Shown: positions 32,599 through 62,221, counted from the stretch's first letter. The stretch is DNA of 64,000 nucleotides from Bacilli bacterium (GCA_017936845.1 JAGBES010000001.1:11026-75025); one strand, 5' to 3'. Made by a program: numbers and translations. Notes: generated by a model from the sequence alone, not told the origin.

Positions 32599-32609
32599 TG
32601 TCAACAATA

Positions 32610-32638: not shown

Positions 32639-32685
32639 TAGATTGTTAGATGAGTTCATCTATTAATCTTAGAGGAGGGTTAAAT

Positions 32686-33027: not shown

Positions 33028-33036
33028 AATTTATTA

Positions 33037-33071
33037 AACAATAGAAATAATCTTTTCTATTGTTTTTTTTT
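33037..33071 (+). terminator. Intrinsic terminator / attenuator after the small VirB2-like gene
   Basis: AAACAATAGAAA-taatct-TTTCTATTGTTT hairpin followed by a T-run. Confidence 0.65.
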
Positions 33072-33116
33072 ATGTTATAATGTATATGTGTAAAAATATA
33101 TTTTTTGAGGTGCAAA

Positions 33117-34271: not shown

Positions 34272-34288
34272 AATAAAGGAGGTAAAAT

Positions 34289-36538: not shown

Positions 36539-36551
36539 GGGGATGGAATAA

Positions 36552-36875: not shown

Positions 36876-37398
36876 ATATACAAATGATTTTGTACCAATA
36901 AAAAGTATAACTAATGGAATGGTTATCCTAGATAATAATAAAAAATTAACAGGAATAAAAATAATGCCTAGAAACATTTTTATTCTAGATCAAGGAACAC
37001 AAAATGCTATCATAGATAATCTAAAGAATGCTTATAATATGATAGATTATGAGTTTTGGATTATAGCAGCAGATAGACCTGTTGATATAAATTTATTTTT
37101 ATCACAACTTCAATTATTATTTAATTCAACACAAGATCAAATAAAAAGAAAAATGATTATGGAAGATATAAATAAAGCAAATTTATTTATGAATAATAAT
37201 ATTGTAGATACTGAATATTTCTTGTTATTTGTTGAAAAAGATACTGATAAGATAAATAAAAGAATAAGACAACTTATAAATGGTTTTGCTAATGCAGGTT
37301 TAACTTCACATCAAGTAACTAATGATGATTTAAGAATTATACTAGATAATTTCTTAAATGGTGGACAAACTACTACATTTGGGACGGTGATTGGATAA
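36853..37398 (+). CDS. VirB4-family ATPase, N-terminal domain encoded as a separate ORF
   Basis: FVPIKSITNGMVILDNNKKLTGIKIMPRNIFILDQGTQNAIIDNLKNAYNMIDYEFWII corresponds to the N-terminal region of single-chain Gram-positive VirB4s (as I recall Tn916 Orf16: IPYKEMFKDGICRV...TIQFEDINYQLA...IFEEWCNFLNYF). It ends in TAATG overlapping the next start. Confidence 0.6.
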   Translation: MKKTIKSKYTNDFVPIKSITNGMVILDNNKKLTGIKIMPRNIFILDQGTQNAIIDNLKNAYNMIDYEFWIIAADRPVDINLFLSQLQLLFNSTQDQIKRKMIMEDINKANLFMNNNIVDTEYFLLFVEKDTDKINKRIRQLINGFANAGLTSHQVTNDDLRIILDNFLNGGQTTTFGTVIG

Positions 37399-39179: not shown

Positions 39180-39200
39180 TAAAAGTTTGGCGGTGATTGC

Positions 39201-41177: not shown

Positions 41178-41179
41178 TT

Positions 41180-41869
41180 ATGAAGAAAAAATTAATATTA
41201 CTTATGTTTGGTATATTTATTTTTACTGGGTGCACAGTTAATTATAATTTAAAAATATCTGATAATGTTATTAATGAAAAAATAAGTATACAAGAATTAT
41301 CAGAAAAAATAGATACTTCTACAGCTGATAGAAATTTAAATAATACTTATTCACAATATAATAATAAAGGAGTAAAGAAATATAATACTTCTAAAGTAAT
41401 AAATGGTAATAAAACTGAATATAATTTAAATCAAACTTATTATTTAGATAGTGTCAGTTACATAAGAGCTTTTGATGAATGTTTTGATGCATATAATATT
41501 GTTTATGTAGATGATACTAGAAGTGAATATTTATTACAAACAAGTAAAGGATTTAAATGTATGACATATGAATATAATACAATAGATTCATATGTTGTAA
41601 ATATTGAAATAGATAAAAAAGTAATTAGTCATAATGCAGATTCAGTAAAAGGAAATGTTTATACTTGGAATATAAATAAAAATAATGCTGCTGATAAAAT
41701 AATAAGTATCCAATTTAAAAATGACCTTCTTGATTTAAAATCAGAAAAAGAAGAGAAAAAAGATTTCAATTATATGATAATATTTATAATTTTTGGTTTG
41801 ATAACACTAGTTTTAATAATAATTTTAGGACTAATAAAATCAATATCAAATAAGAATAATAAAATTTAA
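41180..41869 (+). CDS. Lipoprotein with additional C-terminal TM anchor (T4SS accessory; VirB8/TcpC-position candidate)
   Basis: Lipobox FIFTG|C and C-terminal TM MIIFIIFGLITLVLIIILGLI. It is translationally coupled to the hydrolase gene. Function is inferred only from position. Confidence 0.4.
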   Translation: MKKKLILLMFGIFIFTGCTVNYNLKISDNVINEKISIQELSEKIDTSTADRNLNNTYSQYNNKGVKKYNTSKVINGNKTEYNLNQTYYLDSVSYIRAFDECFDAYNIVYVDDTRSEYLLQTSKGFKCMTYEYNTIDSYVVNIEIDKKVISHNADSVKGNVYTWNINKNNAADKIISIQFKNDLLDLKSEKEEKKDFNYMIIFIIFGLITLVLIIILGLIKSISNKNNKI

Positions 41870-42020
41870 AGATTGTTGAAAAATAATTTTTTTATAAGTT
41901 AAAAATTGACATCTATTATAATTTTTAATTGTATTAATTATATAAATAATATACAATGATAATATATATATTTAAAAAATAAAATTGATGTTTAATATTT
42001 ATAGATAGGAGATTGTTATA

Positions 42021-42413
42021 ATGCAAAGAGAAGAAATACTACACAATGAAGATAATGAAAAAATGATGTATAAATTTAAAAATAAAGAATGTTATATGCA
42101 ACAACATGGTCCATTTTTATTTTTAAATGATGTTTCTAATGAATATTCAAATTCATGTGAATCTAGAAAATTTTATAGATGTGCATGTTTAAAATGTGGA
42201 AGAATAGGTACTTTTCAGATGAACGTAAGGGATAGAAGAAAAACCATATATACAAATAAGACCATAGGTTTAGAAATACTACAAGATTATTATGATTTAA
42301 GAAATGAATTATTAGAACTAATAAATAATAATTCACTAAAAACAGAAATTAAAATACAAGAAATTAATGAAAGATATAAAGTAGAAAAAGAATTAAAAAA
42401 AATAAAAAGATAA
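42021..42413 (+). CDS. Hypothetical small protein with CxxC motif
   Basis: 130 aa, soluble, with CACLKCG and a basic C-terminal coiled coil. No family recognised. Confidence 0.35.
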   Translation: MQREEILHNEDNEKMMYKFKNKECYMQQHGPFLFLNDVSNEYSNSCESRKFYRCACLKCGRIGTFQMNVRDRRKTIYTNKTIGLEILQDYYDLRNELLELINNNSLKTEIKIQEINERYKVEKELKKIKR

Positions 42414-42458
42414 ATTTGTATTAAAATTACAAAAACAACTTATTTTAAAGTTGTTTTT

Positions 42459-43811
42459 CTATTTTGATATAAAAATTCCTTTATAATACTTCCAAGCTAA
42501 TACTTTAAATACTAATTTATCAATAGTATCCTCACTTAATTCATTATCTTTAATAGCATTTTTAATTTCATTAAAACTTTCTTCATAATTGATTGTTATA
42601 ATTAAATTATTTCCAGCTAATAATGCTTTTAAATTTTTATTATCAATATTATTTAGGGCGTTCATATCTAAATCATCTGTTATAATAACACCTGTAAAAT
42701 TTAAATCATCTCTAAGAATATTGTGGGTATTAATAGATAATGATGACGGATTAGAATTATCTATAGAAGTTATTATATTATGGCTAACTAAAATAGCTTC
42801 AGCACCTGCATCTATTCCGACTTTAAAAGGAGGAATATCTATAGATAAAATATCATCATAGGATTTAGATGAAGTAGAACTTCCTGCATGAGTATCACTA
42901 TTACCACCATAACCAGGAAAATGTTTTAAAGTGTATGATACATTTGTTCCTTTACTAGCTTCTATTACTATTTTAGCATATTCTTTTACTTTAGAAGTAT
43001 CTTGTTTCAATGTTCTTTCGTAGATATAATCACTGGAATTAGTTGAAACATCAACTACAGGAGCTAAATTAACATTAAGACCTAATGAATATAATATTTC
43101 ACTTTTATATTTTGTGTCTTCTTTAATTTTTTCAAATCCACCATTATTATATAGTTCACTAGAAGATTTGAAAGGTTCATTTACTAATTTGGGATTACTA
43201 CTAACTCTAATAACTTTACCACCTTCTTCATCAACTGCAGTAAGTAAAGGTATACTAGAATTATTTTGTAATTTATCTATCATAGTTATAACTTCATTTT
43301 TAGTTTTATTTTTAAAATCTTTTTCATAAAAAACAAATCCACTAAATTTATATTTTTTTAAATCTTCTATTTGATTACTTGATGGATATCTTACTAACAA
43401 TAATTGGCCAATTTTTTCATCTAATGATAATTCTTTAAGTTTATTATAAGCCATAACATAATAATCACTAAAAATACCATTATCTAAGTAACTATTAGGT
43501 ATACCATTATTAGATATTGTTTCTTTTGTTTTTTCATAATTAATTACTTTACAATGTTGTTCATGGTTTTCTTTATCAATAACACCAGAATATTTAATAA
43601 TTATTTTATCACCTATATCAATATCATGTTCTTTTAAATTGAAAGTATAAATAATATCATTATCATCTTGAACAGTTATACTATCATTTTTAATACTTAA
43701 TACTTTACCAGTTAAACTATTTGTATCTTTTTTTTCTTTTAAATTAATGCTTAAAGTAATAGTAGTTAGTAAAATAAAAATAAAAGTTATAAATAAAAAT
43801 TTCTTTTTCAT
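42459..43811 (-). CDS. Exported glycoside hydrolase family 3 (NagZ-like beta-N-acetylhexosaminidase)
   Basis: N-terminal signal/anchor, a small beta-domain, then a GH3 N-terminal domain with LKHFPGYGGNSDTHAG (KHFPGHG..D.H motif) and VITDDLDM. Confidence 0.8.
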   Translation of the reverse strand: MKKKFLFITFIFILLTTITLSINLKEKKDTNSLTGKVLSIKNDSITVQDDNDIIYTFNLKEHDIDIGDKIIIKYSGVIDKENHEQHCKVINYEKTKETISNNGIPNSYLDNGIFSDYYVMAYNKLKELSLDEKIGQLLLVRYPSSNQIEDLKKYKFSGFVFYEKDFKNKTKNEVITMIDKLQNNSSIPLLTAVDEEGGKVIRVSSNPKLVNEPFKSSSELYNNGGFEKIKEDTKYKSEILYSLGLNVNLAPVVDVSTNSSDYIYERTLKQDTSKVKEYAKIVIEASKGTNVSYTLKHFPGYGGNSDTHAGSSTSSKSYDDILSIDIPPFKVGIDAGAEAILVSHNIITSIDNSNPSSLSINTHNILRDDLNFTGVIITDDLDMNALNNIDNKNLKALLAGNNLIITINYEESFNEIKNAIKDNELSEDTIDKLVFKVLAWKYYKGIFISK

Positions 43812-43994
43812 AATTTCACCTATTTAATAATATTAAAACTATTTAAAAATATGATATTACTTATATTTAAATATAAGTAATATTTTTATTATAATCAAAT
43901 ATTTTCTAAATATATATTTTAATTTAAAAATAATGTTTATTTAATAAAATTTATGATATAATAATTTTAGTTTATTTCTATGGAGGTTATATTT

Positions 43995-46187
43995 ATGAAA
44001 TTAAAATTTAGAGCAGAACCTAAAGATATATTGATTTTTGTAATCTTTTTAATTTTTTGCTTTTATATCGTATCTATTGGAGTATTAAATATAATGTCAA
44101 TATTAGAAGATGGTACTCTTCATGGTTTAAATCCATTTCCAATATTTACTTCTGATAGTTTTATACTAGCAATGATTATTTTTATAGCAATTTTAATATT
44201 TGCTTTTTCTAGTGTTTCATCATACTTTTTTGAAAGAGAAAAAGGTGTTGGAATAGCTGTAGGTAAAAAAGATGAAAAAGGTTATTCACGTTGGTGTAAA
44301 GATAAAGAAATGAGAAAAGCAAGTGATATTGTCGTTATAAAACCAACTGACGATAATATTCCAAAAGGTGGTATTCCAATTTATAATGATGGGAAAGAAG
44401 TTTGGATTGATACTGGTGGATATCATAATATGATAATAGGATCTACTGGTAGTGGTAAATCTGCTGGTATTGCTTTTCCATATATATATTCTATGGCAAA
44501 AGCTGGAGAATCAATGATTATTACAGATCCAAAAGGTGAACTTTTTAAAGGAACTGCTAAAGAACTTGAAAAAAGAGGATATAATATAATAATATTAAAC
44601 TTTCGTGAACCTGAGAAAGGTAATTGTTGGAATCCTTTTTCTATACCTTATAAACTTTATCAACAAGGAAATACAGATAAGGCTATAGAATTACTTGAAG
44701 ATTTAGCTAAAAATATTTTATATGATGAAAATAATAAAGGGCAAGATCCATTCTGGGAAAATACATCTGCAGATTATTTTGCTGGACTTGCATTTGCCCT
44801 ATTTCAAGATGCTAAAGAAGATGAAGTCAATATAAATAGTATTAATTATATGGCAACAGTAGGTGAAAATAAAATTGGTGGAACTACATACATAAAAGAA
44901 TATTTTAGCAATAAACCTACAACTTCTACAGAAAGCATAAAAGTTAACGCTACAATTACAGCTCCAAATGAAACAAAAGGAAGTATTTTATCAGTATTTA
45001 ATCAAAAAATACAATTATTTTCTTCTCGTGAATCTTTATCTGAAATGTTATCACATAGTGACTTTGATATGGAAGATATTGGTAGAAAAAAAACTGCTGT
45101 ATTTATAGTAATACAAGATGAAAAGAAAACATATCACTCACTTGTTACAATTTTCCTAAAACAATGTTATGAAACATTAGTTAGAGTTGCACAAGAAAAT
45201 CCAGGCGGTAAATTAAAATATAGAACTAATTTCTTACTAGATGAGTTTGCAAACATGCCACCTTTAAGTGATGTAGATGCTATGGTATCCGCAGCACGTT
45301 CAAGAAATATAAAACTGTCATTTATTATTCAAAACTTTTCACAATTAAATGATGTTTATGGAAAAGAAAAAGCAGAAACAATTAGAGGTAACTGTGGGAA
45401 TACAATTTATTTATTAAGTACAGAGCTTGCTGCTTTAGAAGAAATAAGTAAAATGTGTGGAGAAGTTAAATCTAAAAAAGATGATAAAACAGATTCTAGA
45501 CCACTAGTTACAGTAACAGATCTTCAAAATTTAAAAGAAGAAGAAGGATTGATTCTAAGATCAAGAATGCGTCCATTTAAAACCAAATTTAAATACCATT
45601 TTAAAATTAATTGGGGGATGACACAAGAAGAAAAAGAATATCCTGTAAGAGAAAAACAACAAGTAAAAATCTTTGATTTAAAATCTTTTGTAGAAGAACA
45701 AAGAGAAAAGAAAATAAATGAAATGTTAAATGGAAATTCATCAGAATTAAAAATGCCAACCCAAATGCCAGGAGGGTTTCCTCCACCAGGTTTATTTGGT
45801 ATGAAAGAAAAATCAAACAATAGTGGTGGATTTAATGTAGATGACTTAGTAAAAAGAATAGACGCTAAAATAGCTGAACTAGAAGAAGAAGAAAGAAAAG
45901 AAAAAGAAGAACAAGAAAAGAAAAATTCTAAAAAATCAACTGTAGAAAAAATAGAAGAAAAACCTAAAAAAGATAATAATAAAGTTGAAAATTCTGAAAA
46001 AGAGATTGAACATCCAATTGAAATAAGTAATAAAAAAGAACCAATAAAAGAAGAAATATTTAATGATGAAATAGTTGAAGATGAAATTATATCAGATGAT
46101 TTTATTGATACAAAAATAACTTATGATGAAGATGAAATTACTGATGATCAATTCTTTGATGATTTCTTTAGTGATGATGAAGAATAA
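43995..46187 (+). CDS. virD4: VirD4/TraG-family type IV coupling protein with acidic C-terminal tail
   Basis: Two N-terminal TM helices, Walker A IGSTGSGKSAG, ITDPKGE, Walker B FLLDEFANMPPL. The C-terminal ~150 aa are Glu/Lys/Asp-rich. RBS GGAGG precedes the ATG at 43995. Confidence 0.88.
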   Translation: MKLKFRAEPKDILIFVIFLIFCFYIVSIGVLNIMSILEDGTLHGLNPFPIFTSDSFILAMIIFIAILIFAFSSVSSYFFEREKGVGIAVGKKDEKGYSRWCKDKEMRKASDIVVIKPTDDNIPKGGIPIYNDGKEVWIDTGGYHNMIIGSTGSGKSAGIAFPYIYSMAKAGESMIITDPKGELFKGTAKELEKRGYNIIILNFREPEKGNCWNPFSIPYKLYQQGNTDKAIELLEDLAKNILYDENNKGQDPFWENTSADYFAGLAFALFQDAKEDEVNINSINYMATVGENKIGGTTYIKEYFSNKPTTSTESIKVNATITAPNETKGSILSVFNQKIQLFSSRESLSEMLSHSDFDMEDIGRKKTAVFIVIQDEKKTYHSLVTIFLKQCYETLVRVAQENPGGKLKYRTNFLLDEFANMPPLSDVDAMVSAARSRNIKLSFIIQNFSQLNDVYGKEKAETIRGNCGNTIYLLSTELAALEEISKMCGEVKSKKDDKTDSRPLVTVTDLQNLKEEEGLILRSRMRPFKTKFKYHFKINWGMTQEEKEYPVREKQQVKIFDLKSFVEEQREKKINEMLNGNSSELKMPTQMPGGFPPPGLFGMKEKSNNSGGFNVDDLVKRIDAKIAELEEEERKEKEEQEKKNSKKSTVEKIEEKPKKDNNKVENSEKEIEHPIEISNKKEPIKEEIFNDEIVEDEIISDDFIDTKITYDEDEITDDQFFDDFFSDDEE

Positions 46188-51150: not shown

Positions 51151-52352
51151 TGATAGAACAAGCAGAAAAAAAAATAGAAAAACAATTAAAAAAGATAGAT
51201 AAAATATGTGAAGTGAATAGCTTAAAAGTACTAAATGCTTTTCATAAAAATGAAATATCAGAAATTCATTTTAATTCAACTACAGGTTATGGTTATAATG
51301 ATATTGGGAGAGAAGCAATAGAAAATGTATTCAAAGATATATTTAAAGCAGAAAAAGCATTAGTTAGAAATCAATTAATATCAGGTTCACATGCTTTATG
51401 TGTTACATTATTTGCTTTACTTAGGCCAAATGATTTGTTACTTAGTATAACTGGAAAACCATATGACACTTTAGATGAAGTAATAGGTATTAAGGAAAAT
51501 AAAAGTTCTTTAAAATCATATGGAATAAAATATGATCAAATAGATCTTATAAATAATGAATTTGATAAAGATAAAATATTAAAATATTTAAAAAATAATA
51601 AAGTAAAAGTAATAGAAATTCAAAGATCAAGAGGTTATTCAACTAGAAAAAGCATAACAATAGAAAAATTAGAAGAAATAATAAAAGAAATAAGAAGAGT
51701 AGATAAAGAAGTAATAATAATGGTTGATAATTGTTATTGTGAATTTGTAAGTGATAGAGAACCTATAGAGGTTGGAGCTGATATTGTAGTAGGATCACTA
51801 ATAAAAAATTTAGGTGGAGGAATTGCTCCTAATGGTGCTTATATTGTAGGAAGAAAAGATTTAGTTGAGCTTGCTGGAGAAAGACTTACACTTCCAGGAG
51901 AAGGAATGGAAGTTGGACCAACATTAGGAATAAATAAAAGTTTTTTACAAGGAATATATATGGCACCTAGTGTTGTAAAAAATAGCTTAAAAACTGCTAT
52001 CTTAGCAAGTCAAGTATTGTTAGATTTAGGATATGATGTCGATCCAAAACCAAATGATGTAAGAGCAGATATTGTACAAATGATAACATTTAATGATAAA
52101 GAAAAATTAATTAAATTTGTACAAGGAATACAAAAAGGTTCTGCTATTGATTCAAATGTACTTCCAGTACCAGATGATATGCCAGGATATGATGATCAAA
52201 TAATAATGGCATCAGGTTCATTTACGCAAGGATCTTCGATAGAATTTTCTTGTGATGGACCACTTAGAGATCCTTATATAGCTTATTTACAAGGAAGTAT
52301 GACTTATGAATATGGAAAAATAGGAATAGGAATTGCTATAGAAAATTTATAA
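51150..52352 (+). CDS. PLP-dependent methionine gamma-lyase-family protein (YnbB / 'aluminium resistance' family)
   Basis: N-terminal LKVLNAFHKNEISEIHFNSTTGYGYNDIGREAIE and GSLIKNLGGG (PLP-Lys region) match my recollection of this family. Confidence 0.75.
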   Translation: MIEQAEKKIEKQLKKIDKICEVNSLKVLNAFHKNEISEIHFNSTTGYGYNDIGREAIENVFKDIFKAEKALVRNQLISGSHALCVTLFALLRPNDLLLSITGKPYDTLDEVIGIKENKSSLKSYGIKYDQIDLINNEFDKDKILKYLKNNKVKVIEIQRSRGYSTRKSITIEKLEEIIKEIRRVDKEVIIMVDNCYCEFVSDREPIEVGADIVVGSLIKNLGGGIAPNGAYIVGRKDLVELAGERLTLPGEGMEVGPTLGINKSFLQGIYMAPSVVKNSLKTAILASQVLLDLGYDVDPKPNDVRADIVQMITFNDKEKLIKFVQGIQKGSAIDSNVLPVPDDMPGYDDQIIMASGSFTQGSSIEFSCDGPLRDPYIAYLQGSMTYEYGKIGIGIAIENL

Positions 52353-52375
52353 TACTATTGATAAGGAGAATTTAA

Positions 52376-53752
52376 ATGATAAAAAGTAATTTTTCATATA
52401 ATAAAATTAAAATTAATAACAATAAAAGTGATAGAACTGATTTAAAAAAAATTATGAATAAACAAGATATAAATCAAACATCGACATTAAATAAAAACAA
52501 TATTACTGAAACAGTAAATTTAGAAGATTTATATGAAGATGCTACAAGATTTACTAATAATGTTTTCTCAAAAATTAAGACAAATGTAGAATTAAATAAT
52601 CATGGAATATTAAATCATAAAACTATAAAAAGTATTAATGATTCAAAAAATAAATTAGTATCAGATCAATATCATATTAGTGATGATATTTATGATTGTG
52701 ATTCTACAACATTAGATGATATATATAATAATATAGTTAAAATATCTAATGTAAAAAAAATTACATCGACATTTAATGATAAAGTTAATATATTTAATAA
52801 TACCAAAACAACTTTAAATTATGATGGTACAGAACTAAATTATAGTAAAAGGGAAAAAAATGATAATGTAATTAATTATTATGCTGAAAATGGTAATTTA
52901 ATAAAACAAGTATATTTAGATAGTAATTCAGTAACTTTTTACAATGTGAAAAATGAAGGAAATACTGGAATAGATTCTGTAAATATTGATTCAGATGGTA
53001 ATATAGTGTATATTAATTCAAATTTTAATTCTAAATATTATAAATTAAATGATGGTTCTTATGCTTATTTTAGAGATAATGATGGTAATAATAAAACAAA
53101 TAGTAATTATTGTACAGTATATCATTCTGATGGAACAGAAGAAACATATAATGGTAATGGTCAATTAACTGAAAGAGTCGTTAAAGATTCTGATTCTCGA
53201 ATTTATTATAATAGGAAAGAAGATGGATCTATAATTGAAATTAGCAATAATAACTATACTTTAAGAAAATATGATTCAAGTGGTAATATTGTATATCAAA
53301 AAAATGAAGATGGTAGTGCAACTTTATATGATGATAATGGTAATGTTGTAGGAACAGAGTATATTGGTAGCACACCTTGGTCTAAATATGATAATCCAAA
53401 TACGATAATTACTGCAACTGATTCTGAAATACAGGTTTATGATCCAGATACAAGAATTTTAACTGTATTAGATTATCAAAAAAATTTAAAATCGCAATAT
53501 ATAGAAGATGGAGAGATTAATATTAGTTATGGAGTAGATGGAATGGTTTCAAATGCATCTGCCAATTGCATTTTAGAAAACGGATCATTTACTGGAAGAA
53601 CTGAATATAATTCAGATGGAACATATATAACATATGATAACAATAATAATGCTAGAATTATAACAGCTTTAAATGGTAGTGTGACTTTTTATGATGAAAA
53701 TAATAATCCTATAATGACAGTAAATAAAAATGGTGAAGTAAAAAAATATTGA
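52376..53752 (+). CDS. Asn-rich YD-repeat-like protein without signal peptide (candidate T7SS-associated cargo)
   Basis: Repeated Y-D/N-x-x-G-N-(I/V/L) beta-hairpin-like units: YAENGNLIKQVY, DSDGNIVYIN, YNGNGQLTERV, YDSSGNIVYQKNEDGSATLYDDNGNVVG, FYDENNNPIMTVNKNGEV. There is no TM and no Sec signal. It lies directly upstream of the T7SS genes. Confidence 0.45.
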   Translation: MIKSNFSYNKIKINNNKSDRTDLKKIMNKQDINQTSTLNKNNITETVNLEDLYEDATRFTNNVFSKIKTNVELNNHGILNHKTIKSINDSKNKLVSDQYHISDDIYDCDSTTLDDIYNNIVKISNVKKITSTFNDKVNIFNNTKTTLNYDGTELNYSKREKNDNVINYYAENGNLIKQVYLDSNSVTFYNVKNEGNTGIDSVNIDSDGNIVYINSNFNSKYYKLNDGSYAYFRDNDGNNKTNSNYCTVYHSDGTEETYNGNGQLTERVVKDSDSRIYYNRKEDGSIIEISNNNYTLRKYDSSGNIVYQKNEDGSATLYDDNGNVVGTEYIGSTPWSKYDNPNTIITATDSEIQVYDPDTRILTVLDYQKNLKSQYIEDGEINISYGVDGMVSNASANCILENGSFTGRTEYNSDGTYITYDNNNNARIITALNGSVTFYDENNNPIMTVNKNGEVKKY

Positions 53753-53801
53753 AAATTAAAAATTTTGATATAATAATATTGAATGATATGGAGGTTAAGT
53801 T

Positions 53802-54086
53802 ATGAATTAAGAAAAATATTTACCTATTGGTACAGTAGTAATGTTAAAAAATGCTGAAAAAAGAATTATGATAACAGGATTTTTATGTGTGGAAAAAAAT
53901 AATAGTGAAAAAATATATGATTATACAGGGTGCTTATATCCAGAAGGTTATATAAGTGCTGATAAATCATTGTTGTTTAATCATGACCAAATAGATAAGA
54001 TTTATCATTTAGGTTTAAAAGATATAGAAGAAGAAAAATTTAAACAAAAATTAAATGAAATAGAAAAGAATGTAAAATCTAATTAA
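53802..54086 (+). pseudogene. DUF4176-family gene with in-frame stop at codon 3
   Basis: RBS GGAGG lies 7 nt before ATG 53802, then ATG AAT TAA GAA AAA TAT TTA CCT ATT GGT ACA GTA GTA. This reads MN*EKYLPIGTVV..., against MKYEKYLPIGTVV in the intact paralog at 60056. The rest (to 54086) is highly similar to that paralog. Confidence 0.7.
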
Positions 54087-54326
54087 GTTAATTAAAAATA
54101 AAAACACCAAATTTTTGTCAAAATATTTTTTTAATAATTTATATTGTAAAATTAAATAATAATAGATTTGTTATTAAGGTTATCTAGATATTTTATTCAT
54201 AAAATTTTCTTGGATGAATTCATGAATAAGATATAAAAAAATTATTATTATTTTACATTAAAGTATCAAAAACAATTGATACTTTTTTTAAAAATATTAT
54301 AATTATATATGATATAGGAGGTTATT

Positions 54327-54746
54327 ATGAGTAATGTAGAAAAAATAAAGATGAATATAAATATTAGCGATAGCATAAAAAAATATAGTACAAATAATAA
54401 TTCTTCTAATAGAAATGTGTTAAAAATAAATGAAATAAAACAAGAAATAGATAATTTAGAAATTGAAGAATGTAATTTAAATAAAAACGTTCAATATTTT
54501 TATTTAAATACTGGGGCTGTAAGTTCTAATGTAATATCTTCATTAACAGGTTCAAATGTATTAGAAATAAATGCAGAAGAATGGTTTCAAAATGATTTAA
54601 AACCTAAAATATTAAATATAGTGAAAAATTATGGTCAAATGGAAGTTTTGATTAAAAGAAAATCTAGAATGATAGTGGTTGATCCACCTGGAATAACATA
54701 TATAAATGGAGTCCCAAAAAAAAGTATAACAGTTTTATTAGTTTAG
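54327..54746 (+). CDS. Hypothetical protein
   Basis: 139 aa with RBS AGGAGG. No TM and no recognised motif. Confidence 0.4.
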   Translation: MSNVEKIKMNINISDSIKKYSTNNNSSNRNVLKINEIKQEIDNLEIEECNLNKNVQYFYLNTGAVSSNVISSLTGSNVLEINAEEWFQNDLKPKILNIVKNYGQMEVLIKRKSRMIVVDPPGITYINGVPKKSITVLLV

Positions 54747-54756
54747 GAGGTTTAAT

Positions 54757-55144
54757 ATGAATAATTTTATTAATAATGATGAAAGATTTATAGCAAATAA
54801 TAATGAGTATAGGGTTACTTCAAGTGATGGCTCTGACATTCAAGGAGCTATAAAAGAAAGAAAAGAATATTCAAATACTAAAGCATTAGAAAAATATATG
54901 CCAATAGGAAGTGTAGTAAGAATAAAAGGCTTAGGAAAGTTTCTAATGATAGTTGGATTTAATTATAACAATAATAATAATCAAAAATATGATTATATTG
55001 CCTGTGAATATCCATATGGAATATGGATACTATAATTTTAATCATGAAGATATTCAAAAAATTTATTTCGTTGGATATGTAAATTTATTGGAAAAAGAGT
55101 TTAAAGAAGATATGGATAATAATAAATTAAAAACAGAAAAATAA
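54757..55144 (+). pseudogene. DUF4176-family gene with N-terminal extension, interrupted by a frameshift
   Basis: Frame A reads ...KYMPIGSVVRIKGLGKFLMIVGF...KYDYIACEYPYGIWIL* (stop at 55035). Frame B continues YYNFNHEDIQKIYFVGYVNLLEKEF...* (to 55144). Together they parallel the intact paralog (YLPIGTVV...YDYTGCLYPEGY...FDHNQIDKIYYLGL). I count 16 nt between the GGA of PYG and the TTT of FNH, which is not a multiple of 3. Confidence 0.65.
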
Positions 55145-55246
55145 TAAATTTTATTTTTTTGTTTTTTTATATACTAAACTTAAAAAAGTTCATTTACATA
55201 TCAAAATACAAATGATATAATTATATAAGAATAATAGGGTGATTTT

Positions 55247-58200
55247 ATGTTAATAACATTGTATTTGTATGATAAAATATTAAAATTTAATTTACCAACT
55301 GATATATCAGGTAGTTTTTCATTCGATGAAGAAAATGAAGAAAACAAATTAATTAATATAGAGGCAAGAAATGATGGATGGTATTTATATCGAACTTCAG
55401 AAGTAAATATTTTAAATAATGGAATGATGGTAGAATCTATAATACTTGAACCTAATAAATTTTATTTTTTAGAAAGAGAAAATAGAAAATACTTACTATA
55501 TACAAGTGAAATTCCAAATGAAAATGTTTTACGATATACATATGATAAAGAATTTAATTTGTCGATAGGAAATATATCAGGTACAAATATAAATTATAAA
55601 ACAAATTTAGTTAATAATTTTTTAATAAATATATCTAAAAATCAACAAATTATATTAAATAATAAATCAAGTGTTCCTTTATACTTAAATGGTTTACTTA
55701 TAAACAATAATCAAGCAAATATTAAAATGGGTGATGAATTAGAATTTTATGGAATAAAAATTGTATTTTTAATTAATATGATAATTTTTATTGGAAATGT
55801 AAAATTACTTGATATAGATGCTGAAAGTGCTAAAATAAGACATTATTTAGTTCCAGAACAAAAAGAGCAAGTAGATGAAAAAATAAAAGATAGAGAATTA
55901 TATAGTGATAATGACTATTTTACAAAATCACCAAGATTAAGAAGATTAATAGAAAAGAAGGAAATAGAATTTAGCACTCCTCCTAAAAAGGGTGATAGTC
56001 AAGAATTACCACTCATTTTATCAATTGGTCCAATGCTTACAATGGGAATGATGTCATTTGTGACATTAGCAAATTTGATAATCCAAATAACTTCAAAACA
56101 AACAACTTTTTTTAAATCTTGGCCACAGCTGGTTACAAGTATTGTTATGTTAACTTCAATGCTTTTATGGCCATTAATAACGAAAAAATATAATAAAAAA
56201 ATGAAAGAAAAAGCACGAAAAGAAATAGTAGAAAAATATACAAAATATTTAGAAAATAAAGAAAAAGAAATAAGTGAAGAAGCTAAAATACAAGCAGTTA
56301 TTTTAAAAGAAAACTTAATAACAGTTAATGATTGTCTAAATGTAATGAAAAGAAAATCAATGAACTTTTGGGATAAAAGAATAGATCAAAATGATTTCTT
56401 AGTAGCAAGACTAGGGATTGGTAATGCACCATTAGAAGTAGAAATAAAATATCCAAAAGAGGGATTTACTATAGAGGAAGATGAATTAAAAAATAAAGCA
56501 GATAAGCTTGTAGAAAAATATAAATATATAGAAGGTGTCCCAATAGGTTATTCTTTTTATGATAATATGCTTACAGCTATAATGGGAAATAAAGAATTAA
56601 TAACTAATTTTTTAAATAATATAATTTTACAATTAATTACTTTTTATAGCTATGAAGATTTAAAAATAGTTATGTTCACGAATAATAAAAGAGAAAATGA
56701 TTGGGAATATCTAAAATATTTAAATCATTGTTTTACAAATGAAAGGGATTTTAGATTTTTCTCTACAAATAATGAAAGTGCCAAAAAAATATCAGATTAT
56801 TTGGAATATGAATTAACTAATCGTATTAATTTGAAACAGAAAATAAATAAACCTCATTATCTCATAATAGCTGATAGTTATGAAACAATAAAAAGACTTA
56901 ATTTCTTTAAAATAATGACTGAAGAAGATGAAAATTATGGATTTTCATTAATAGTACTAGAAAATCAATTAAGCAAATTACCAAGTAAATGTAATAACTT
57001 TATATCAATTGATAATAATCAATCTGTAATATTAAAAAATTCATATGAAAAGCAAGAAAAAATATTATTTAGACATGAAATATATCCTAATATAGATATG
57101 ATTAGTATTTCAAAATATTTATCAAATATACCAATTGAATTTGAAGAAGGAATGAAATCATTACCAAATTCTATAACTTTTTTAGAAATGGAAAAGGTTG
57201 GTAAAGTAGAACAGTTAAATATTTTAAATAGGTGGAATACAAATAACTCAACAGAGAGTTTAAGAGCTGAAATAGGTGTGGATGAACAAGGAGATTTAAT
57301 GTATTTAGATCTTCATGAAAAGTATCATGGACCACATGGCTTAATAGCAGGTATGACAGGTAGTGGTAAGTCAGAATTTATTATAACTTATATATTATCG
57401 ATGTCAATTAATTATAGTCCAGATGATGTTTCTTTTATTCTAATAGATTATAAAGGTGGAGGTTTAGCATTCGCATTTGAAAATAAAGCAACTGGGGCAA
57501 TATTGCCACATTTAGCAGGAACGATAACAAATCTAGATAAAGCTGAAATGAATAGAACTTTAGTAAGTATTGACAGTGAAATAAAAAGAAGACAGAAAAT
57601 ATTTAATGAAGCAAGGGATTTATTAGGCGAAAGTACAATTGATATATATAAATATCAAAGATTCTTTAAAGAAGGAAAACTAAAAGAACCTGTACCACAT
57701 TTATTTATAATATGTGATGAGTTTGCAGAATTAAAAAGTCAGCAACCAGAATTTATGGATAATTTAATTAGTGTAGCAAGAATTGGAAGAAGTTTAGGAG
57801 TACATTTAATACTAGCAACTCAAAAACCGAGTGGAGTTGTAAATGATCAAATTTGGTCAAATACAAAATTTAGAGTATGTTTAAAAGTTCAAGATGAATC
57901 AGATAGTAAAGAAATGTTAAAAAGACCAGAAGCAGCTGGTATTAAACAAACTGGTAGATTTTATTTACAAGTGGGTTATAATGAATATTTTGCTTTAGGT
58001 CAATCTGCATGGTGTGGTGCTAAATATTATCCATCTGATAAAATTGTAAAACAAGTTGATAAAAGTATTAATTTCATAAATGATTGTGGTCAATATATAA
58101 AAAGTATTCAAGCTTCAAATAATATAAAAATACAAGCGCAAGGTGAACAATTGGCTGCTATTATGAATTCTATAATTGATGTTTCAAATCAGGTAGGTAA

Positions 58201-59794
58201 AAAATCTAGAAAGTTGTGGTTAGACAATATTGAACCTGTAATAACTATAGATGCATTAGAAAAAAAATATAATTATCAAAGAAAAAATGACACAGTTGAA
58301 GTTATTTTAGGAGAATTTGATGCTCCTGAAAATCAAATGCAGGATTTAGTAAAATATAATTACTTAAAAGATGGAAATACTATTATCTATGGAAATGATG
58401 GTAGTGAAAATGAAATGATGTTAAATACAATTATTTATTCTACAGTAAAAAATTATACATCTAATTATATTAATTATTATATAATTGATTATGGTTCAGA
58501 ATCATTAAGAAAATATACTAAATTACCTCATGTTGGAGGCGTTGTATTTGCTGGAGAAGATGAGGAATATAATAATTTAATGAAACTTATAAAAGAAGAA
58601 ATAAAAACACGAAAGAAGCTATTTTCAAATTATGGTGGAGAATATATAAATTATATAAAAAATTCAGGTAACTATTTACCAATAAAAGTTGTAATTATAA
58701 ATAATTATGATTCTGTATATGAATCAAATCAAACTATATATGAAGAATTACCTGAAATGATAAGAGATTCTGAAAGATTTGGGTTTGTATTTATAATTAC
58801 AGGATCAGCAGTTAATTCAGTACATAATAAAATTGTTACAGCTTGTAATAATTTCTACGCTTTTAAAGTGAAAGATATAGCTGATTATAATTCTATTTTT
58901 GGAATTAGGGTTAAAGATGGACCAATTGATAATTTTGGTAGAGGGTTATTAAAAACTGATAGTGTTCATTCTTTCCAAACAGCATCTATAATAAATGACA
59001 AAGAAAAACAAAATGAATATTTACAACAATTTATTGAACAACAAAAACAATATAATAATATAAAAGCAGAAATGATACCAGTATTACCAGAATATGTTAG
59101 ATATGATAATATTAAAAATTATATAAAAACAATTACAAGTATTCCAATTGGTATAAGTAAAACAGAATTAGAAATTGTTAATTTTGAATTAAGTAACAAT
59201 ATAGGAAATATAATATCGTCGAATAGAATTCAAAATACTGAAAAGTTTTGCATGAGTTTAATTTCTATATTAATGCTATTTAAAAATTCAAATTTAATCA
59301 TAATAGATTCAAATAATAGTCTTGCAAAATATAGTCAAAAACTAAATAACTATTATAATAGTAATTTAGATGAATTAATTGATAATATGATAAATAAAAT
59401 AAGAAAATTGATAGAAGAAAAAAGTAATCAATCAGGTATAATATTTATTTATAATATGAGCAAATTTATAAAAAAAGTAAATGACAATACAAAAATTAAT
59501 GAATTATTTAATTTGGTAAAAGAATATGAAAAAATGACTGTTATAGTAGCTGATGGTGCAAATCAATTAAAAAATTTTGCTTATGAAACTTGGTTTACAA
59601 GTGTCTTTAATACAGCAGATGGTATTTGGATAGGAAAAGGAATATCAAATCAAAGTTTATTTAGACTTACAAATGTAACTAAAGATATGACTTTAGATTG
59701 CAAAAATGATATGGGATATGTTTTATTTGATGGTCAAGGAGAACTTTGTAGATTAATAGATTTTATTAGTGTAGAAGGTGAAGAAAATGGATAG
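55247..59794 (+). CDS. essC: T7SSb ATPase EssC (FtsK/SpoIIIE family, tandem N-terminal FHA domains)
   Basis: 1515 aa. N-terminal FHA-like repeats, two TM helices (LILSIGPMLTMGMMSFVTLANLII; LVTSIVMLTSMLLWPLI), first ATPase domain GMTGSGKSEF / IICDEFAEL, and two further degenerate P-loop domains. Confidence 0.92.
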   Translation: MLITLYLYDKILKFNLPTDISGSFSFDEENEENKLINIEARNDGWYLYRTSEVNILNNGMMVESIILEPNKFYFLERENRKYLLYTSEIPNENVLRYTYDKEFNLSIGNISGTNINYKTNLVNNFLINISKNQQIILNNKSSVPLYLNGLLINNNQANIKMGDELEFYGIKIVFLINMIIFIGNVKLLDIDAESAKIRHYLVPEQKEQVDEKIKDRELYSDNDYFTKSPRLRRLIEKKEIEFSTPPKKGDSQELPLILSIGPMLTMGMMSFVTLANLIIQITSKQTTFFKSWPQLVTSIVMLTSMLLWPLITKKYNKKMKEKARKEIVEKYTKYLENKEKEISEEAKIQAVILKENLITVNDCLNVMKRKSMNFWDKRIDQNDFLVARLGIGNAPLEVEIKYPKEGFTIEEDELKNKADKLVEKYKYIEGVPIGYSFYDNMLTAIMGNKELITNFLNNIILQLITFYSYEDLKIVMFTNNKRENDWEYLKYLNHCFTNERDFRFFSTNNESAKKISDYLEYELTNRINLKQKINKPHYLIIADSYETIKRLNFFKIMTEEDENYGFSLIVLENQLSKLPSKCNNFISIDNNQSVILKNSYEKQEKILFRHEIYPNIDMISISKYLSNIPIEFEEGMKSLPNSITFLEMEKVGKVEQLNILNRWNTNNSTESLRAEIGVDEQGDLMYLDLHEKYHGPHGLIAGMTGSGKSEFIITYILSMSINYSPDDVSFILIDYKGGGLAFAFENKATGAILPHLAGTITNLDKAEMNRTLVSIDSEIKRRQKIFNEARDLLGESTIDIYKYQRFFKEGKLKEPVPHLFIICDEFAELKSQQPEFMDNLISVARIGRSLGVHLILATQKPSGVVNDQIWSNTKFRVCLKVQDESDSKEMLKRPEAAGIKQTGRFYLQVGYNEYFALGQSAWCGAKYYPSDKIVKQVDKSINFINDCGQYIKSIQASNNIKIQAQGEQLAAIMNSIIDVSNQVGKKSRKLWLDNIEPVITIDALEKKYNYQRKNDTVEVILGEFDAPENQMQDLVKYNYLKDGNTIIYGNDGSENEMMLNTIIYSTVKNYTSNYINYYIIDYGSESLRKYTKLPHVGGVVFAGEDEEYNNLMKLIKEEIKTRKKLFSNYGGEYINYIKNSGNYLPIKVVIINNYDSVYESNQTIYEELPEMIRDSERFGFVFIITGSAVNSVHNKIVTACNNFYAFKVKDIADYNSIFGIRVKDGPIDNFGRGLLKTDSVHSFQTASIINDKEKQNEYLQQFIEQQKQYNNIKAEMIPVLPEYVRYDNIKNYIKTITSIPIGISKTELEIVNFELSNNIGNIISSNRIQNTEKFCMSLISILMLFKNSNLIIIDSNNSLAKYSQKLNNYYNSNLDELIDNMINKIRKLIEEKSNQSGIIFIYNMSKFIKKVNDNTKINELFNLVKEYEKMTVIVADGANQLKNFAYETWFTSVFNTADGIWIGKGISNQSLFRLTNVTKDMTLDCKNDMGYVLFDGQGELCRLIDFISVEGEENG

Positions 59795-60047
59795 TAAAGT
59801 ATTAATAAAATTAATTGTTTATGAAATGAATTCTTCATTTGATGTTTTTATTCCTGTTAATGAGTATATATGGAAGATAAAAAAATTATTAGTAAAATCA
59901 ATAGGTGACCTAAATAATATAAGAATTGATATAAATAAAGAATGCATATTACTAAATAAAGATAATAATAAAATATATTCCAATAATGATATTGTTATAG
60001 ATACAGATATTAGAAATGGTACTGAAATTGTATTAATGTTTAGGTAG
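59787..60047 (+). CDS. esaB: EsaB/YukD-like ubiquitin-fold T7SS protein
   Basis: 86 aa. The pattern FDVFIPVNEYIWKIKKLL...ILLNKDNNKIYSNNDIVIDTDIRNGTEIVLM fits the YukD family. The ATG overlaps the essC stop (ATGGATAG). Confidence 0.75.
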   Translation: MDSKVLIKLIVYEMNSSFDVFIPVNEYIWKIKKLLVKSIGDLNNIRIDINKECILLNKDNNKIYSNNDIVIDTDIRNGTEIVLMFR

Positions 60048-60055
60048 GTGATAAA

Positions 60056-60334
60056 ATGAAATATGAAAAATATTTACCAATAGGTACAGTTGTTTTACTT
60101 AAAGGTGGAACTAAAAGAGTTATGATAACAGGATTTTGTGTTATGAGTTCCCAAAATAATAAAATATATGATTATACAGGATGTTTATATCCCGAAGGAT
60201 ATGTAAGCCAAAATAATGTTATGCTGTTTGATCATAATCAAATTGATAAAATATATTATCTTGGTTTATCTGATAATGAAGAAAAAATGTTTAAGCAAAA
60301 ATTAAATGAAGTAATAAATGAAAGTGTAAAGTAG
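60056..60334 (+). CDS. DUF4176-family protein (intact paralog)
   Basis: MKYEKYLPIGTVVLLKGGTKRVMITGF...YDYTGCLYPEGY...FDHNQIDKIYYLGL matches my recollection of the DUF4176 pattern that recurs in Firmicute T7SS loci. Confidence 0.7.
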   Translation: MKYEKYLPIGTVVLLKGGTKRVMITGFCVMSSQNNKIYDYTGCLYPEGYVSQNNVMLFDHNQIDKIYYLGLSDNEEKMFKQKLNEVINESVK

Positions 60335-60415
60335 TTAAAAGATGTTTGACATAAACATCTTTTATATTGTATAATTTTATTAGATAGTAAGACTATCATA
60401 GGGAGGGTGAAAAAT

Positions 60416-61060
60416 ATGGCAATGACAGGATTTAATCCAGAAGCTGCTAGAATGTCAATTAATGGTATTATTAATAGTTACAAAGAATTGAGAGTTGCAA
60501 TGTGTAATGATATGCAAACAAAATTTGTAGGAGGTATGGCTGATAAATGGAGTTGTAATCAAGCTATTTCATTCTTTGCCGCATTTAAAGAAGCAGATAA
60601 TAGCTTATTAACTTCAATTAATACAATATTTGAAAGTGTTGTAAATTCAATGAATAGTGCTGCTCAACGTTGGGCTGCAAACACTAATTCGTCATGGACA
60701 AATGTTGCATTTTCATTAGAAACATCAACAATTTCAGTTGATTCAATTGTTGAAAATATTGGTGGTATAAGAGGTATTGATATTGAAAATACACCAGCAG
60801 TAGTATCAACTTTAGATGTTGTACAATCAAGTGCTAATCAAGCTTTACAAAACGCTATAAGAGCTGTTGAAAATTGTGGGTTTTTAGATGCTTCATCAAA
60901 TCAACAAGCAAATTTAACAGCATCATTAAATACAATTTCTTCAAATATTAATAGAGCTGTTGAACAATTTAAAGCAGATGTATCTAAAGCTATTAATGAA
61001 ACAATTTCGGCTTATGGTGATACTAAAGGTGCTATAGCAAACGCATTTTCTGCACAATAA
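60416..61060 (+). CDS. WXG100-like (ESAT-6/EsxA-like) helical hairpin with ~115-aa C-terminal extension; putative T7SS substrate
   Basis: RBS GGGAGGG precedes the ATG at 60416. MAMTGFNPEAARMSINGI...MADKWSCNQAISFFAAFKEA aligns with the EsxA pattern MAMIKMSPEEIRAKS...AANWEGQAFSRFEEQF. Trp is at position 45 and W-S-C replaces W-x-G. Confidence 0.55.
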   Translation: MAMTGFNPEAARMSINGIINSYKELRVAMCNDMQTKFVGGMADKWSCNQAISFFAAFKEADNSLLTSINTIFESVVNSMNSAAQRWAANTNSSWTNVAFSLETSTISVDSIVENIGGIRGIDIENTPAVVSTLDVVQSSANQALQNAIRAVENCGFLDASSNQQANLTASLNTISSNINRAVEQFKADVSKAINETISAYGDTKGAIANAFSAQ

Positions 61061-61117
61061 TTTAGAAAATTAGTTTTTCTAAATATATGTATATTAGTTT
61101 ATAGTATACATATATTT
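61061..61117 (+). terminator. Two consecutive hairpins after the WXG-like gene
   Basis: TTTAGAAAA-ttagt-TTTTCTAAA is followed by the perfect 13-bp inverted repeat AAATATATGTATA-(11 nt)-TATACATATATTT. Confidence 0.45.
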
Positions 61118-61133
61118 GGAAAAAAGGTGGACT

Positions 61134-61688
61134 ATGAAAATAAATGTTCAAAATTTAAAAAATGATTTATTAAAGTTAAATAAATTAATTGAGGATTATG
61201 AGAATAATTATTTAAATATATATAAAGAAATGTCACAAATTTCTTTTTTTTGGAATGATGCAATTTCTAAAAAATTCTTCAAAGAATTAGAATTAGAAAA
61301 AATAAAAATAATGGATAATATTAATGAAATAAAAGAATTAAAAAGTATTTACTTTTTAATTGTTGAAAAATATGAAAAATTAGGAAATAATATAAAAGTA
61401 AATTTAAAAAATAAAGATAGTGTTTTAAGTTTAATAAATAGGTATTATAATAAAGTAAACGAAATATTTCAATATTATTCAAATTTAAATCTATATAATA
61501 TTGATTATAAAATACAAAATAGTATATATAATGAAAAACTAAAAGTAAAGGAAATATTAAAAAACATAGAACATATAAAAGATGAATTTAAAGATAAAAT
61601 GAATACAATAGAACAAATAGAAATTAGTATAAAAAATAAAATTAATTCTATAAATATAAGTTATTTTAAAGAAATAGAGGTTTTATAA
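61134..61688 (+). CDS. Coiled-coil protein with WXG-like turn (W-N-D at residue 40); T7SS-associated candidate
   Basis: MKINVQNLKNDLLKLNKLIEDYENNYLNIYKEMSQISFFWNDAISKKFF has a helix of ~40 aa, then Trp-x-x-A-x-S-x-x-F as in WXG100/LXG N-termini. The rest is Lys/Asn/Glu coiled coil. Confidence 0.4.
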   Translation: MKINVQNLKNDLLKLNKLIEDYENNYLNIYKEMSQISFFWNDAISKKFFKELELEKIKIMDNINEIKELKSIYFLIVEKYEKLGNNIKVNLKNKDSVLSLINRYYNKVNEIFQYYSNLNLYNIDYKIQNSIYNEKLKVKEILKNIEHIKDEFKDKMNTIEQIEISIKNKINSINISYFKEIEVL

Positions 61689-61689
61689 T

Positions 61690-61986
61690 ATGAATTATGG
61701 AATAGATGAAGTTCAATTAAATAATAATTTAGAAAAAATAAAATTTTATAAAAGAGAAGAAATACAGAATTTTCTAGAAATAGATGATTTGTTATTAAAT
61801 ATAAATAATAATTATAAAACAGATAATATTAATAGATTAAGTGAATTAGAATTAGAAATTTCAAATAAATTAAAAAAAATAATTAATTCTCATGATATAG
61901 AAATAATGCTTATTCATAAAAGAATAGAAGATTATATGAAAACAGCTAAAGAAGTAGCAAATATTTTATCAAATAGTGGTGATTAA
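61690..61986 (+). CDS. Small helical protein (T7SS accessory/chaperone candidate)
   Basis: 98 aa, predicted all-helical, tightly packed after the previous gene (2-nt gap). No family recognised. Confidence 0.35.
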   Translation: MNYGIDEVQLNNNLEKIKFYKREEIQNFLEIDDLLLNINNNYKTDNINRLSELELEISNKLKKIINSHDIEIMLIHKRIEDYMKTAKEVANILSNSGD

Positions 61987-61987
61987 A

Positions 61988-62221
61988 ATGAATGAAAAAA
62001 GTATATATATAAAATTAAAAAATGATTTATATTTTATAAGAAAAAAAATAAATGATCTAGATGATATTCATGATGAATTATTATCAACTATGAAAGAAGT
62101 ATTATTAATTGATAATAATGTTATATGTAATGAAGAAATTTATAATAATAAAAAAAATATAAAATTTATAAATAACGATATAGTTAATTATGTTATACCA
62201 TTTATAAATAATAAAATTTAA
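61988..62221 (+). CDS. Small helical protein (T7SS accessory candidate)
   Basis: 77 aa from the ATG at 61988 (RBS GGTGA). Last gene before the infC promoter. Confidence 0.35.
   Translation: MNEKSIYIKLKNDLYFIRKKINDLDDIHDELLSTMKEVLLIDNNVICNEEIYNNKKNIKFINNDIVNYVIPFINNKI

Follow-up and report, generated by a model that had tools for sequence, protein, structure and literature searches.

A compact EssC locus in a Bacilli bacterium points to a reduced type VII secretion system

In models for type VII secretion systems (T7SS) of the T7SSb kind, EssB/YukC is the scaffold that holds the EssC channel and EsaA is the part that spans the wall. Cryo-electron microscopy (cryo-EM) of the Bacillus subtilis machine showed that the central channel is formed by YukB, which makes lateral DUF/stalk contacts, that YukC is a cytoplasmic scaffold with an extracellular crown, and that YukD is bound to the FHA domains, the DUF domain and the D1 β-hairpin (PMC12637312). 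The types T7SSc to T7SSj, surveyed by Garrett, Higginson & Palmer in 2024, are devoid of EssA, EssB and EsaA, and each of them has further parts such as kinases, phosphatases, FHA proteins, a β-propeller or an AAA+ ATPase (PMC11217815). Since that survey drew on RefSeq only (PMC11217815), the lineages treated here, represented solely by metagenome-assembled genomes (MAGs), were not sampled. Here we analyze an essC locus in a 64,000-nucleotide stretch of a Bacilli bacterium genome (GCA_017936845.1, JAGBES010000001.1:11026-75025; 'the window'), in which the dedicated machine parts are only EssC and a YukD-like ubiquitin-fold protein. An earlier note, written from the sequence of the window, had left three explanations for this poverty: missing parts encoded elsewhere, a non-functional remnant, or a reduced apparatus centred on EssC. 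Our results favour the last, and the locus is probably a horizontally acquired, self-contained cassette for a reduced T7SS.

In a blastn comparison with a genome of the same genus (G005), homology runs up to position 52346 of the window and starts again at 62216. The range delimited by the earlier note thus corresponds to exactly one inserted island, a 9.87-kb insertion at 52347-62215 between the borders named at that time, a pyridoxal-phosphate (PLP) enzyme gene on one side and the infC promoter on the other. In three congeners (G005, G001 and G002) the PLP-enzyme gene is directly followed by infC-rpmI-rplT. As these congeners show an empty site, the cassette entered as a single unit, and the genome's entire T7SS complement came in as one 9.87-kb piece. 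The island lies entirely within a 111-kb contig with both junctions assembled; the genome assembly as a whole comprises 1.12 Mb in 34 contigs and is 88% complete. The genes between 52376 and 62221 are all on the plus strand and closely packed, and the G+C content of the window is 24%. Other cargo genes are found at the PLP-enzyme/infC spot in the congeners G003, G004 and G006, and this spot is a variable cargo site in the genus: G005 has only a 69-aa CxxC mini-ORF (open reading frame) there, and G003 two large proteins of 1197 and 990 aa, each with a single transmembrane (TM) segment. The essC gene of G004 is located on a contig other than the one with this spot.

The absence of EssB- and EsaA-type ORFs, which the earlier note had seen for the locus, extends to the whole assembly, and no canonical essA/essB/esaA cluster was found elsewhere in the genome by profile, phmmer and topology searches. 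For EssB/YukC, the best score on PF10140 was 11.5 bits and TIGR03926 matched nothing, and for EsaA nothing was found with TIGR03929 (EsaA-N) at E<=10. The EssA model PF10661 gave only a chance-level score of 13.6 bits; in the control genome G026 this model also fails to detect the 138-aa protein with one TM segment that occupies the essA position. When EsxA, EsaA, EssA, EsaB and EssB of a canonical relative were used as phmmer queries, nothing was found in the genome, and no ORF with an EssB-like central TM segment or an EsaA/YhgE-like topology occurs in the assembly. No single-TM ORF was found on the coding strand of the island, and hidden Markov models (HMMs) of all T7-linked families match this island only. 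Two groups of candidates were rejected: the small hydrophobic ORFs of the island, nearly all of which are antisense composition artefacts, the handful of coding-strand ones falling within annotated genes, and five ORFs with a central hydrophobic segment, which resemble alcohol dehydrogenase, a GPR-type protease, RecA, an Abi-like protein and MreB, none of them being EssB-like.

The same picture was obtained from related genomes. YukC passed the cut-off in 0 of 53 EssC-bearing genomes (0/9 of the same family and 0/44 further ones), many of which are 93-96% complete, and neither YukC nor EsaA was found in the closed circular chromosome OZ006994.1 (1.26 Mb; G047), which carries the same gene module. 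EsaA-N did not exceed the cut-off in any of the 44 genomes; seven had unlinked sub-threshold matches, probably YhgE/Pip-like proteins. Matches from an EssA Pfam search of the 53 genomes were discarded as TM tails of unrelated frames of 570-610 aa. The YukC test works in this class, as the canonical control G026, which belongs to another family of the same class, was detected with 170.7 bits and has the order esxA-esaA-essA-esaB-essB-essC.

Among 40 relatives, EssC exceeded the cut-off in eight other genomes of the same family (seven other genera) and in two of the seven genomes of the genus, and the congeners devoid of the island are also devoid of EssC. A scan of 185,579 species genomes yielded 54 loci whose EssC proteins are 33-60% identical, almost all in gut MAGs labelled uncultured Bacilli, Tenericutes or Mycoplasmatota, with one closed genome (OZ006994.1). 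Clustering of the neighbourhoods (1254 ORFs from 65 loci) revealed a recurring module in which essC is followed by the gene of the ubiquitin-like (Ubl) protein, f2 (~215 aa, 31 loci), f3 (~185 aa, 28 loci), f6/f16 (~98 aa) and f5 (~82 aa), with flanks that are unrelated between loci. No conserved TM protein occurs within 10 kb of essC in about 60 loci. The earlier note had called for such a comparison of related loci, and its outcome, zero YukC in 53 genomes and the same module recurring, suggests a simpler, hitherto undescribed variant rather than a damaged copy, because about fifty related genomes, one of them closed, share the layout.

Likewise, no kinase or PP2C gene was found within 10 kb of essC in about 59 loci of the clade with 40-60% identity. 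With a kinase HMM and PP2C phmmer searches over the 65 loci, matches were obtained only in L080, L081 and L084. These are Clostridia MAGs with the most distant EssC proteins (33-36% identity), in which membrane Ser/Thr kinases or PP2C stand beside essC, and we assigned them to the published kinase-type variants. The genome studied here has a single Ser/Thr kinase and PP2C pair, adjacent to each other at C2:43992-46561 and unlinked to the island. In a second sub-clade, at about 40% identity, ordinary WXG100 pairs and probable toxins of larger size take the place of the module; those of its conserved neighbouring genes with a Pfam match are housekeeping genes (IleRS, MscS, a pilin), and the others, f19 and f33, match no family.

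EssC itself scores 974.7 bits on the T7SSb equivalog TIGR03928 (T7_EssCb_Firm; cut-off 778.4). Its residues 209-986 match the B. subtilis YukB cryo-EM chain 9qks with E 5e-126, and the match takes in the D1 β-hairpin region that binds YukD in YukB. Two TM helices lie at about residues 246-307, and EssC is the sole membrane protein of the locus, no other ORF of the island having a TM segment. A profile built from the first 245 residues of 30 clade members matched the FHA domain of Ki-67 (E 3e-6) and the N-domain of Geobacillus EssC (5fwh, E 8e-4). The residues that bind phosphothreonine (pThr) in FHA domains (G-R, S-x-x-H) are replaced here by G-N and V-N-N-F and are degenerate in the sub-clade; non-conserved pThr-binding residues have likewise been reported for T7SSb EssC (PMC11217815). 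The best-conserved element of the N-terminal part, D-Y-F-x-K-S-P-R-x-R-R just ahead of TM1, aligns to the 210-240 linker of YukB, which the B. subtilis structure implicates in oligomerisation (PMC12637312).

An earlier description of EssC as a protein with two FHA domains, two TM segments and three P-loop domains was right about the FHA domains and the TM helices, but only D1 has canonical Walker A and B motifs (GMTGSGKSE and DEFAEL), together with an ATQKPSG segment. In an alignment of 67 sequences, the D2 motif G[NT]DGxERE (~residues 1049-1057) is conserved in the sub-clade that carries the f2-f3 module, and it is therefore a lineage trait and not a lesion. At this column the second sub-clade keeps GSGK followed by Glu, and canonical and kinase-type EssC proteins keep GK[ST]. 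D3 is degenerate both here and in the canonical control G026. Several relatives (L042, L064, L073, L076, G010 and G014) have two essC genes, each with its own Ubl gene; some of these pairs are less than 10 kb apart, and those of G010 and G014 are on separate contigs.

The 89-aa Ubl protein (family f1) had been recognized as EsaB/YukD-like, and this identification holds at the level of fold and gene order, whereas in sequence the Pfam YukD matches are weak and confined to some family members. On its own the ORF gave no significant family match and no Pfam YukD match, and a profile of the family found no YukD in the Protein Data Bank (PDB), so that a fold comparison was needed; across the family, weak Pfam matches were to UBL in 13 of 26 members and to YukD in five of 26. 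The fold predicted by AlphaFold2 (AF2) is a β-grasp of the β-β-α-β-β order (pLDDT 92), for which Foldseek returned ubiquitin and SUMO as well as the Ubl domain of EccD5 in the ESX-5 complex (7np7_D2, TMq 0.76). In 59 of 62 loci f1 adjoins essC.

The clade thus retains all the B. subtilis-type parts of the YukB/C/D core except YukC, the D1 hairpin region included. As a working model, an EssC hexamer would form the membrane channel through its own TM helices and its DUF/stalk contacts, while the Ubl protein would clamp the FHA/DUF region and the D1 β-hairpin as YukD does, although no YukC scaffold is at hand; in the simplest form of the model the Ubl protein alone would stabilise the hexamer. 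The helical WXG-like proteins might be exported as co-secreted core substrates or serve as targeting partners, and polymorphic toxins chaperoned by DUF4176 proteins would be interchangeable cargo where they are present. Taken together, the cassette is in our judgement probably the simplest variant so far of the known T7SS family, provided that it does secrete. A stronger proposal, which we put forward tentatively and with less confidence, is that, in a walled Gram-positive lineage, EssC and one ubiquitin-fold protein may by themselves make up a type VII translocon that is complete and autonomous, with none of EssA/EssB/EsaA, EccB/EccD/EccE or the kinase module, and that it may move as a ~7-kb cassette with a single-chain two-hairpin WXG-like core substrate.

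Several observations weigh against so simple a machine. PF10661 is insensitive, as the protein at the essA position of G026 escaped it, and the EsaA-N model gives the genuine EsaA of G026 only 57 bits, while unlinked EsaA-N matches of 45-77 bits occur in eight genomes, though neither in the genome studied here nor in the closed one. The D2 P-loop of EssC reads GNDGSENE and has no Lys, and part of the cargo genes are dead. The lineage is walled, as judged by MraY, and cargo would have to pass the peptidoglycan without EsaA. Finally, YukC/EssB is essential in the studied T7SSb systems, and the YukB/C/D core was reported as conserved across Gram-positives in the 2025 cryo-EM study (PMC12637312). 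The earlier statement that EssA, EssB, EsaA and EssC are all required is in line with this for YukC/EssB, but it does not extend to the published variants c to j, which lack the first three (PMC11217815).

That EsaA was lost because the lineage has no wall was considered and rejected, since MraY is present and RF39 is predicted to be mostly walled (PMC10868615). MraY exceeded the cut-off in the genome studied here and in 24 of 25 family genomes, and the test discriminates, as six other genomes of the class lack MraY. Full-length copies above the TIGR00445 cut-off are located at C19:2202-3137, C23:21046-21960 and C24:4936-5850 in this genome, and most family members have two or three MraY genes; the C23 and C24 copies may represent a duplicated contig, because their scores are identical.

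The simplest objection, an ordinary split T7SSb whose essA, essB and esaA fall into the roughly 12% of the genome that is unassembled, is very improbable. The incompleteness of the assembly and its many contigs allow for it, but YukC is over the cut-off in none of the 53 related EssC-bearing genomes, the closed chromosome with the same module has neither YukC nor EsaA, and the island is a single insertion with both junctions assembled, in a genus whose island-free members lack EssC too. The suggestion of the earlier note that the missing parts are encoded elsewhere therefore found no support in the whole-genome searches or in the closed relative. We also regard it as improbable, if less so, that this copy is a decaying or selfish non-functional remnant through which the strain exports nothing. 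Two of three DUF4176 genes are broken, an 806-aa effector has been cut down to 139 aa, the 458-aa protein stands as an orphan, Lys is absent from the D2 P-loop and most congeners do without the island. Against this, all six core genes and one DUF4176 gene are intact, and the inactivating lesions in essC that the earlier note had considered were not found: the frame is uninterrupted over 1515 codons in a genome of 24% G+C, the catalytic motifs of D1 are kept and the D2 motif is a conserved feature of the sub-clade. Furthermore, a metagenome contig (L099) is about 96% identical over 54.6-61.4 kb of the window, and relative to it the ratio of non-synonymous to synonymous substitution rates (dN/dS, NG86) is 0.116 in EssC, where 55 non-synonymous differences stand against 102 synonymous ones, 0.13 in the Ubl protein and 0.17 in both f2 and part of f3. 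A break of EssC in L099 turned out to be a scaffold gap of Ns and no lesion. As values of 0.12-0.17 indicate recent purifying selection, the core is not a remnant, and with EssC intact and the module syntenic in about 60 loci, the idea of a remnant holds for the cargo periphery only (two DUF4176 pseudogenes and the 139-aa remnant).

More weight, although still well short of an even chance, has to be given to a functional system that is not minimal, in which EssC and the Ubl protein work with non-homologous accessory membrane proteins encoded elsewhere, either lineage core genes or small proteins. Retention of the FHA domains, which bind EssB in T7SSb, suggests that some partner of EssC still exists, and none of the published variants is without some additional component (PMC11217815). 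In a walled lineage a wall-spanning or wall-cutting helper is to be expected, and a candidate of the latter kind is found in some relatives: in L038 (the closed OZ006994.1; 16706-18821), L039-L041, L046 and L047 the module is directly followed by a protein of 415-459 aa that is leaderless and has a CHAP domain at its C-terminus, and then by an Amidase_3 protein. These could be wall-cutting helpers or cargo, and the pair recalls the EssH hydrolase of Staphylococcus aureus (PMC13059805). On the other hand, the cassette occurs in many genomic contexts and its presence varies within one genus, so that a fixed host partner would have to pre-exist in naive genomes. Neither the topology searches of the genome nor the neighbourhoods within 10 kb of essC offered such a membrane protein, and the pThr-binding residues of the retained FHA domains are degenerate in the sub-clade. 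The reduced, EssC-centred apparatus hence remains the reading that we prefer.

If the stronger proposal is true, it would define the minimal T7SS and show YukC as a scaffold and EsaA as a wall conduit to be additions that the machine does not require. With FHA domains, linker and Ubl protein kept but YukC lost, the clade amounts to a natural deletion experiment on the parts needed for channel assembly and export, and the six-gene cassette is small and could be transferred to laboratory Bacillus strains to reconstitute the system and study its structure. Its occurrence is wide among gut Bacilli of the RF39-like, small-genome type, in humans, rodents, rabbits, ruminants and chickens, and these uncultured commensals therefore probably join toxin-mediated competition. 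The features of the island are compiled in Table 1.

Table 1. Features of the island; positions are counted from the first nucleotide of the window
Feature	Position	Strand	Remarks
Whole T7SS island	52347..62215	.	blastn vs G005; empty site in G005, G001, G002
458-aa Asn-rich leaderless protein, weak YD/RHS- and MORN-like repeats	52376..53752	+	orphan, possible cargo
DUF4176 chaperone pseudogene	53802..54086	+	TAA at codon 3, MN*EKYLPIGTVV...
139-aa internal-deletion remnant of 806-aa polymorphic-toxin-type effector	54327..54746	+	match to L099 protein
DUF4176 chaperone gene broken by frameshift	54757..55144	+	92-aa and 63-aa pieces; both frames together give full domain
EssC	55247..59794	+	1515 aa; FHA-FHA, YF.KSPR.RR linker, 2 TM, DUF/stalk, active-looking D1, degenerate D2/D3
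YukD/EsaB-like ubiquitin-fold protein, family f1	59778..60047	+	89 aa; overlaps essC stop
Intact DUF4176 chaperone gene	60056..60334	+	92 aa; PF13780 99.4 bits
Two-hairpin WXG100-like protein, family f2	60416..61060	+	about 214-217 aa; probable core substrate or counterpart of EsxA
190-aa helical protein, family f3	61116..61688	+	N-terminal half WXG100-like; 28 loci
98-aa WXG100-like helical protein, family f6	61690..61986	+	relatives f16, f13
81-aa helical protein, family f5	61976..62221	+	last gene of conserved module

The small helical proteins downstream of the Ubl gene agree with the earlier listing of one WXG100-like protein and three further helical ones, in that profiles link f2, f3 and f6 to WXG100. 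The link exists at profile level only, as no protein of the island has a Pfam WXG100 match. In f2 an invariant Trp48 occupies the WXG position, and a true W-x-G occurs in distant members; its profile matched ESAT-6 with E 0.02 and the WXG100 family of relatives with 74% in hhalign. The AF2 model of f2 (pLDDT 92.7) has four long helices arranged as two hairpins in a single chain, for which Foldseek against the PDB returned only weak four-helix-bundle matches (Dps/ferritin, E about 0.1). There is no toxin domain and no Pfam LXG match in f2, its homologues include Candidatus Faecimonas (GTDB RF39, family CAG-611), and from its sequence it is likely the core substrate or the EsxA equivalent. The N-terminal half of f3 matched the WXG100 family f8 (hhalign probability 95.2%, E 2.4e-8), and one f3 orthologue has a weak YwqH-like Pfam match. 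For f6, hhalign gave 97.7% with f16, 95.8% with f13 and 88% with WXG100, while f5 was found in 15 loci, always after f6/f16, and matches no family. An HMM built from WXG100 proteins of relatives found no WXG100 protein in the genome; weak matches on C2 and C17 were dismissed as coiled-coil or low-complexity proteins.

The upstream part of the island belongs to the cargo side, with the 458-aa protein as a possible cargo. This protein has no TM segment, as had been noted before, reaches only sub-threshold Pfam scores (MORN_2 22.9 bits, RHS_repeat 13.9 bits) and, in a set of 5.8 billion proteins, has no homologue but itself. Members of the DUF4176 family act as chaperones of T7SSb toxins (PMC12478183), and the observation that two of the three paralogs are broken stands, with a stop codon in one and a frameshift in the other. 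The 81-aa remainder of the gene at 53802 still scores 76.5 bits on PF13780, the L099 orthologue of the gene at 54757 is intact (131 aa, 88% identical), and the intact gene at 60056 is not at that position in this close relative. Residues 1-102 and 96-139 of the 139-aa ORF match the N- and C-terminus, respectively, of the intact 806-aa L099 protein, about 660 residues having been deleted. In L053 (20964-23477), an 838-aa T7-associated protein with a C-terminal ADP-ribosyltransferase domain (ADPrib_exo_Tox) precedes a DUF4176 gene and is 30% identical to the 806-aa protein. As this relative ends in such a domain, the 806-aa protein and DUF4176 would form polymorphic-toxin cargo modules. The cargo periphery of this strain has decayed.

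Outside the insertion, at 26558-46187, the window has a pilus-like cluster (an ATPase, two polytopic proteins and two pilin-like genes) and then a block resembling a conjugative type IV secretion system (T4SS), including a VirD4-like coupling protein.

Compared with described systems, the cassette is closest in its parts to T7SSb. EssC passes TIGR03928 and has N-terminal FHA domains whose pThr residues are degenerate, the linker ahead of TM1, two TM helices, an active D1 and the D1 β-hairpin; a free-standing YukD-like Ubl gene follows essC; and WXG100-superfamily proteins, DUF4176 chaperones and polymorphic-toxin cargo are shared. Unlike T7SSb, it lacks EssB/YukC and EsaA/YueB and has nothing recognisable as EssA/YueC, a WXG-like protein of ~215 aa with two hairpins stands in place of the canonical 100-aa EsxA, the Walker A motif of D2 has become a conserved G-x-D-G-x-E-R-E, and EssC is only 27% identical to a canonical EssC of the same class. 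The gene group also resembles the LXG toxin/Lap complexes of T7SSb, as two or three genes for small helical partners come after an elongated helical protein of ~200 aa, one of these partners giving a weak YwqH-like match, and DUF4176 chaperones are nearby; however, f2 has neither the toxin domain nor the LXG match and stands in the conserved core beside essC, not in a variable cargo slot.

The position of the EssC clade among the TsxC subtypes was judged by comparison of architectures. T7SSg and T7SSf likewise have no EssA, EssB or EsaA, and both keep TsxA/TsxB/TsxC (PMC11217815). T7SSg, with A1, A2, B, C and a single additional protein, has been called 'relatively simple', but its ATPase has no FHA domain, it has the DUF5050 β-propeller TsgL and it adjoins Tad pilus genes (PMC11217815); here FHA is present, no extra neighbour protein is conserved, and the pilus-like genes of the window (26-32 kb) lie outside the island. 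The ATPase of T7SSf bears FHA as here, but a PPM phosphatase, a DUF6382-FHA membrane protein (TsfJ) and an AAA+ ATPase (TsfV) are added (PMC11217815), whereas no PP2C, second FHA protein or AAA+ gene was found in or near the module. In contrast to T7SSc, d, e and j, no membrane Ser/Thr kinase (TsxD) or PPM phosphatase (TsxF) is linked to the module (PMC11217815), and the FHA pThr-binding residues are not conserved, unlike in the kinase-type variants. Since none of the architectures of that survey matches and our full-text literature searches found no paper on T7SS in RF39-like lineages, the cassette would represent a new variant within the known T7SS kind.

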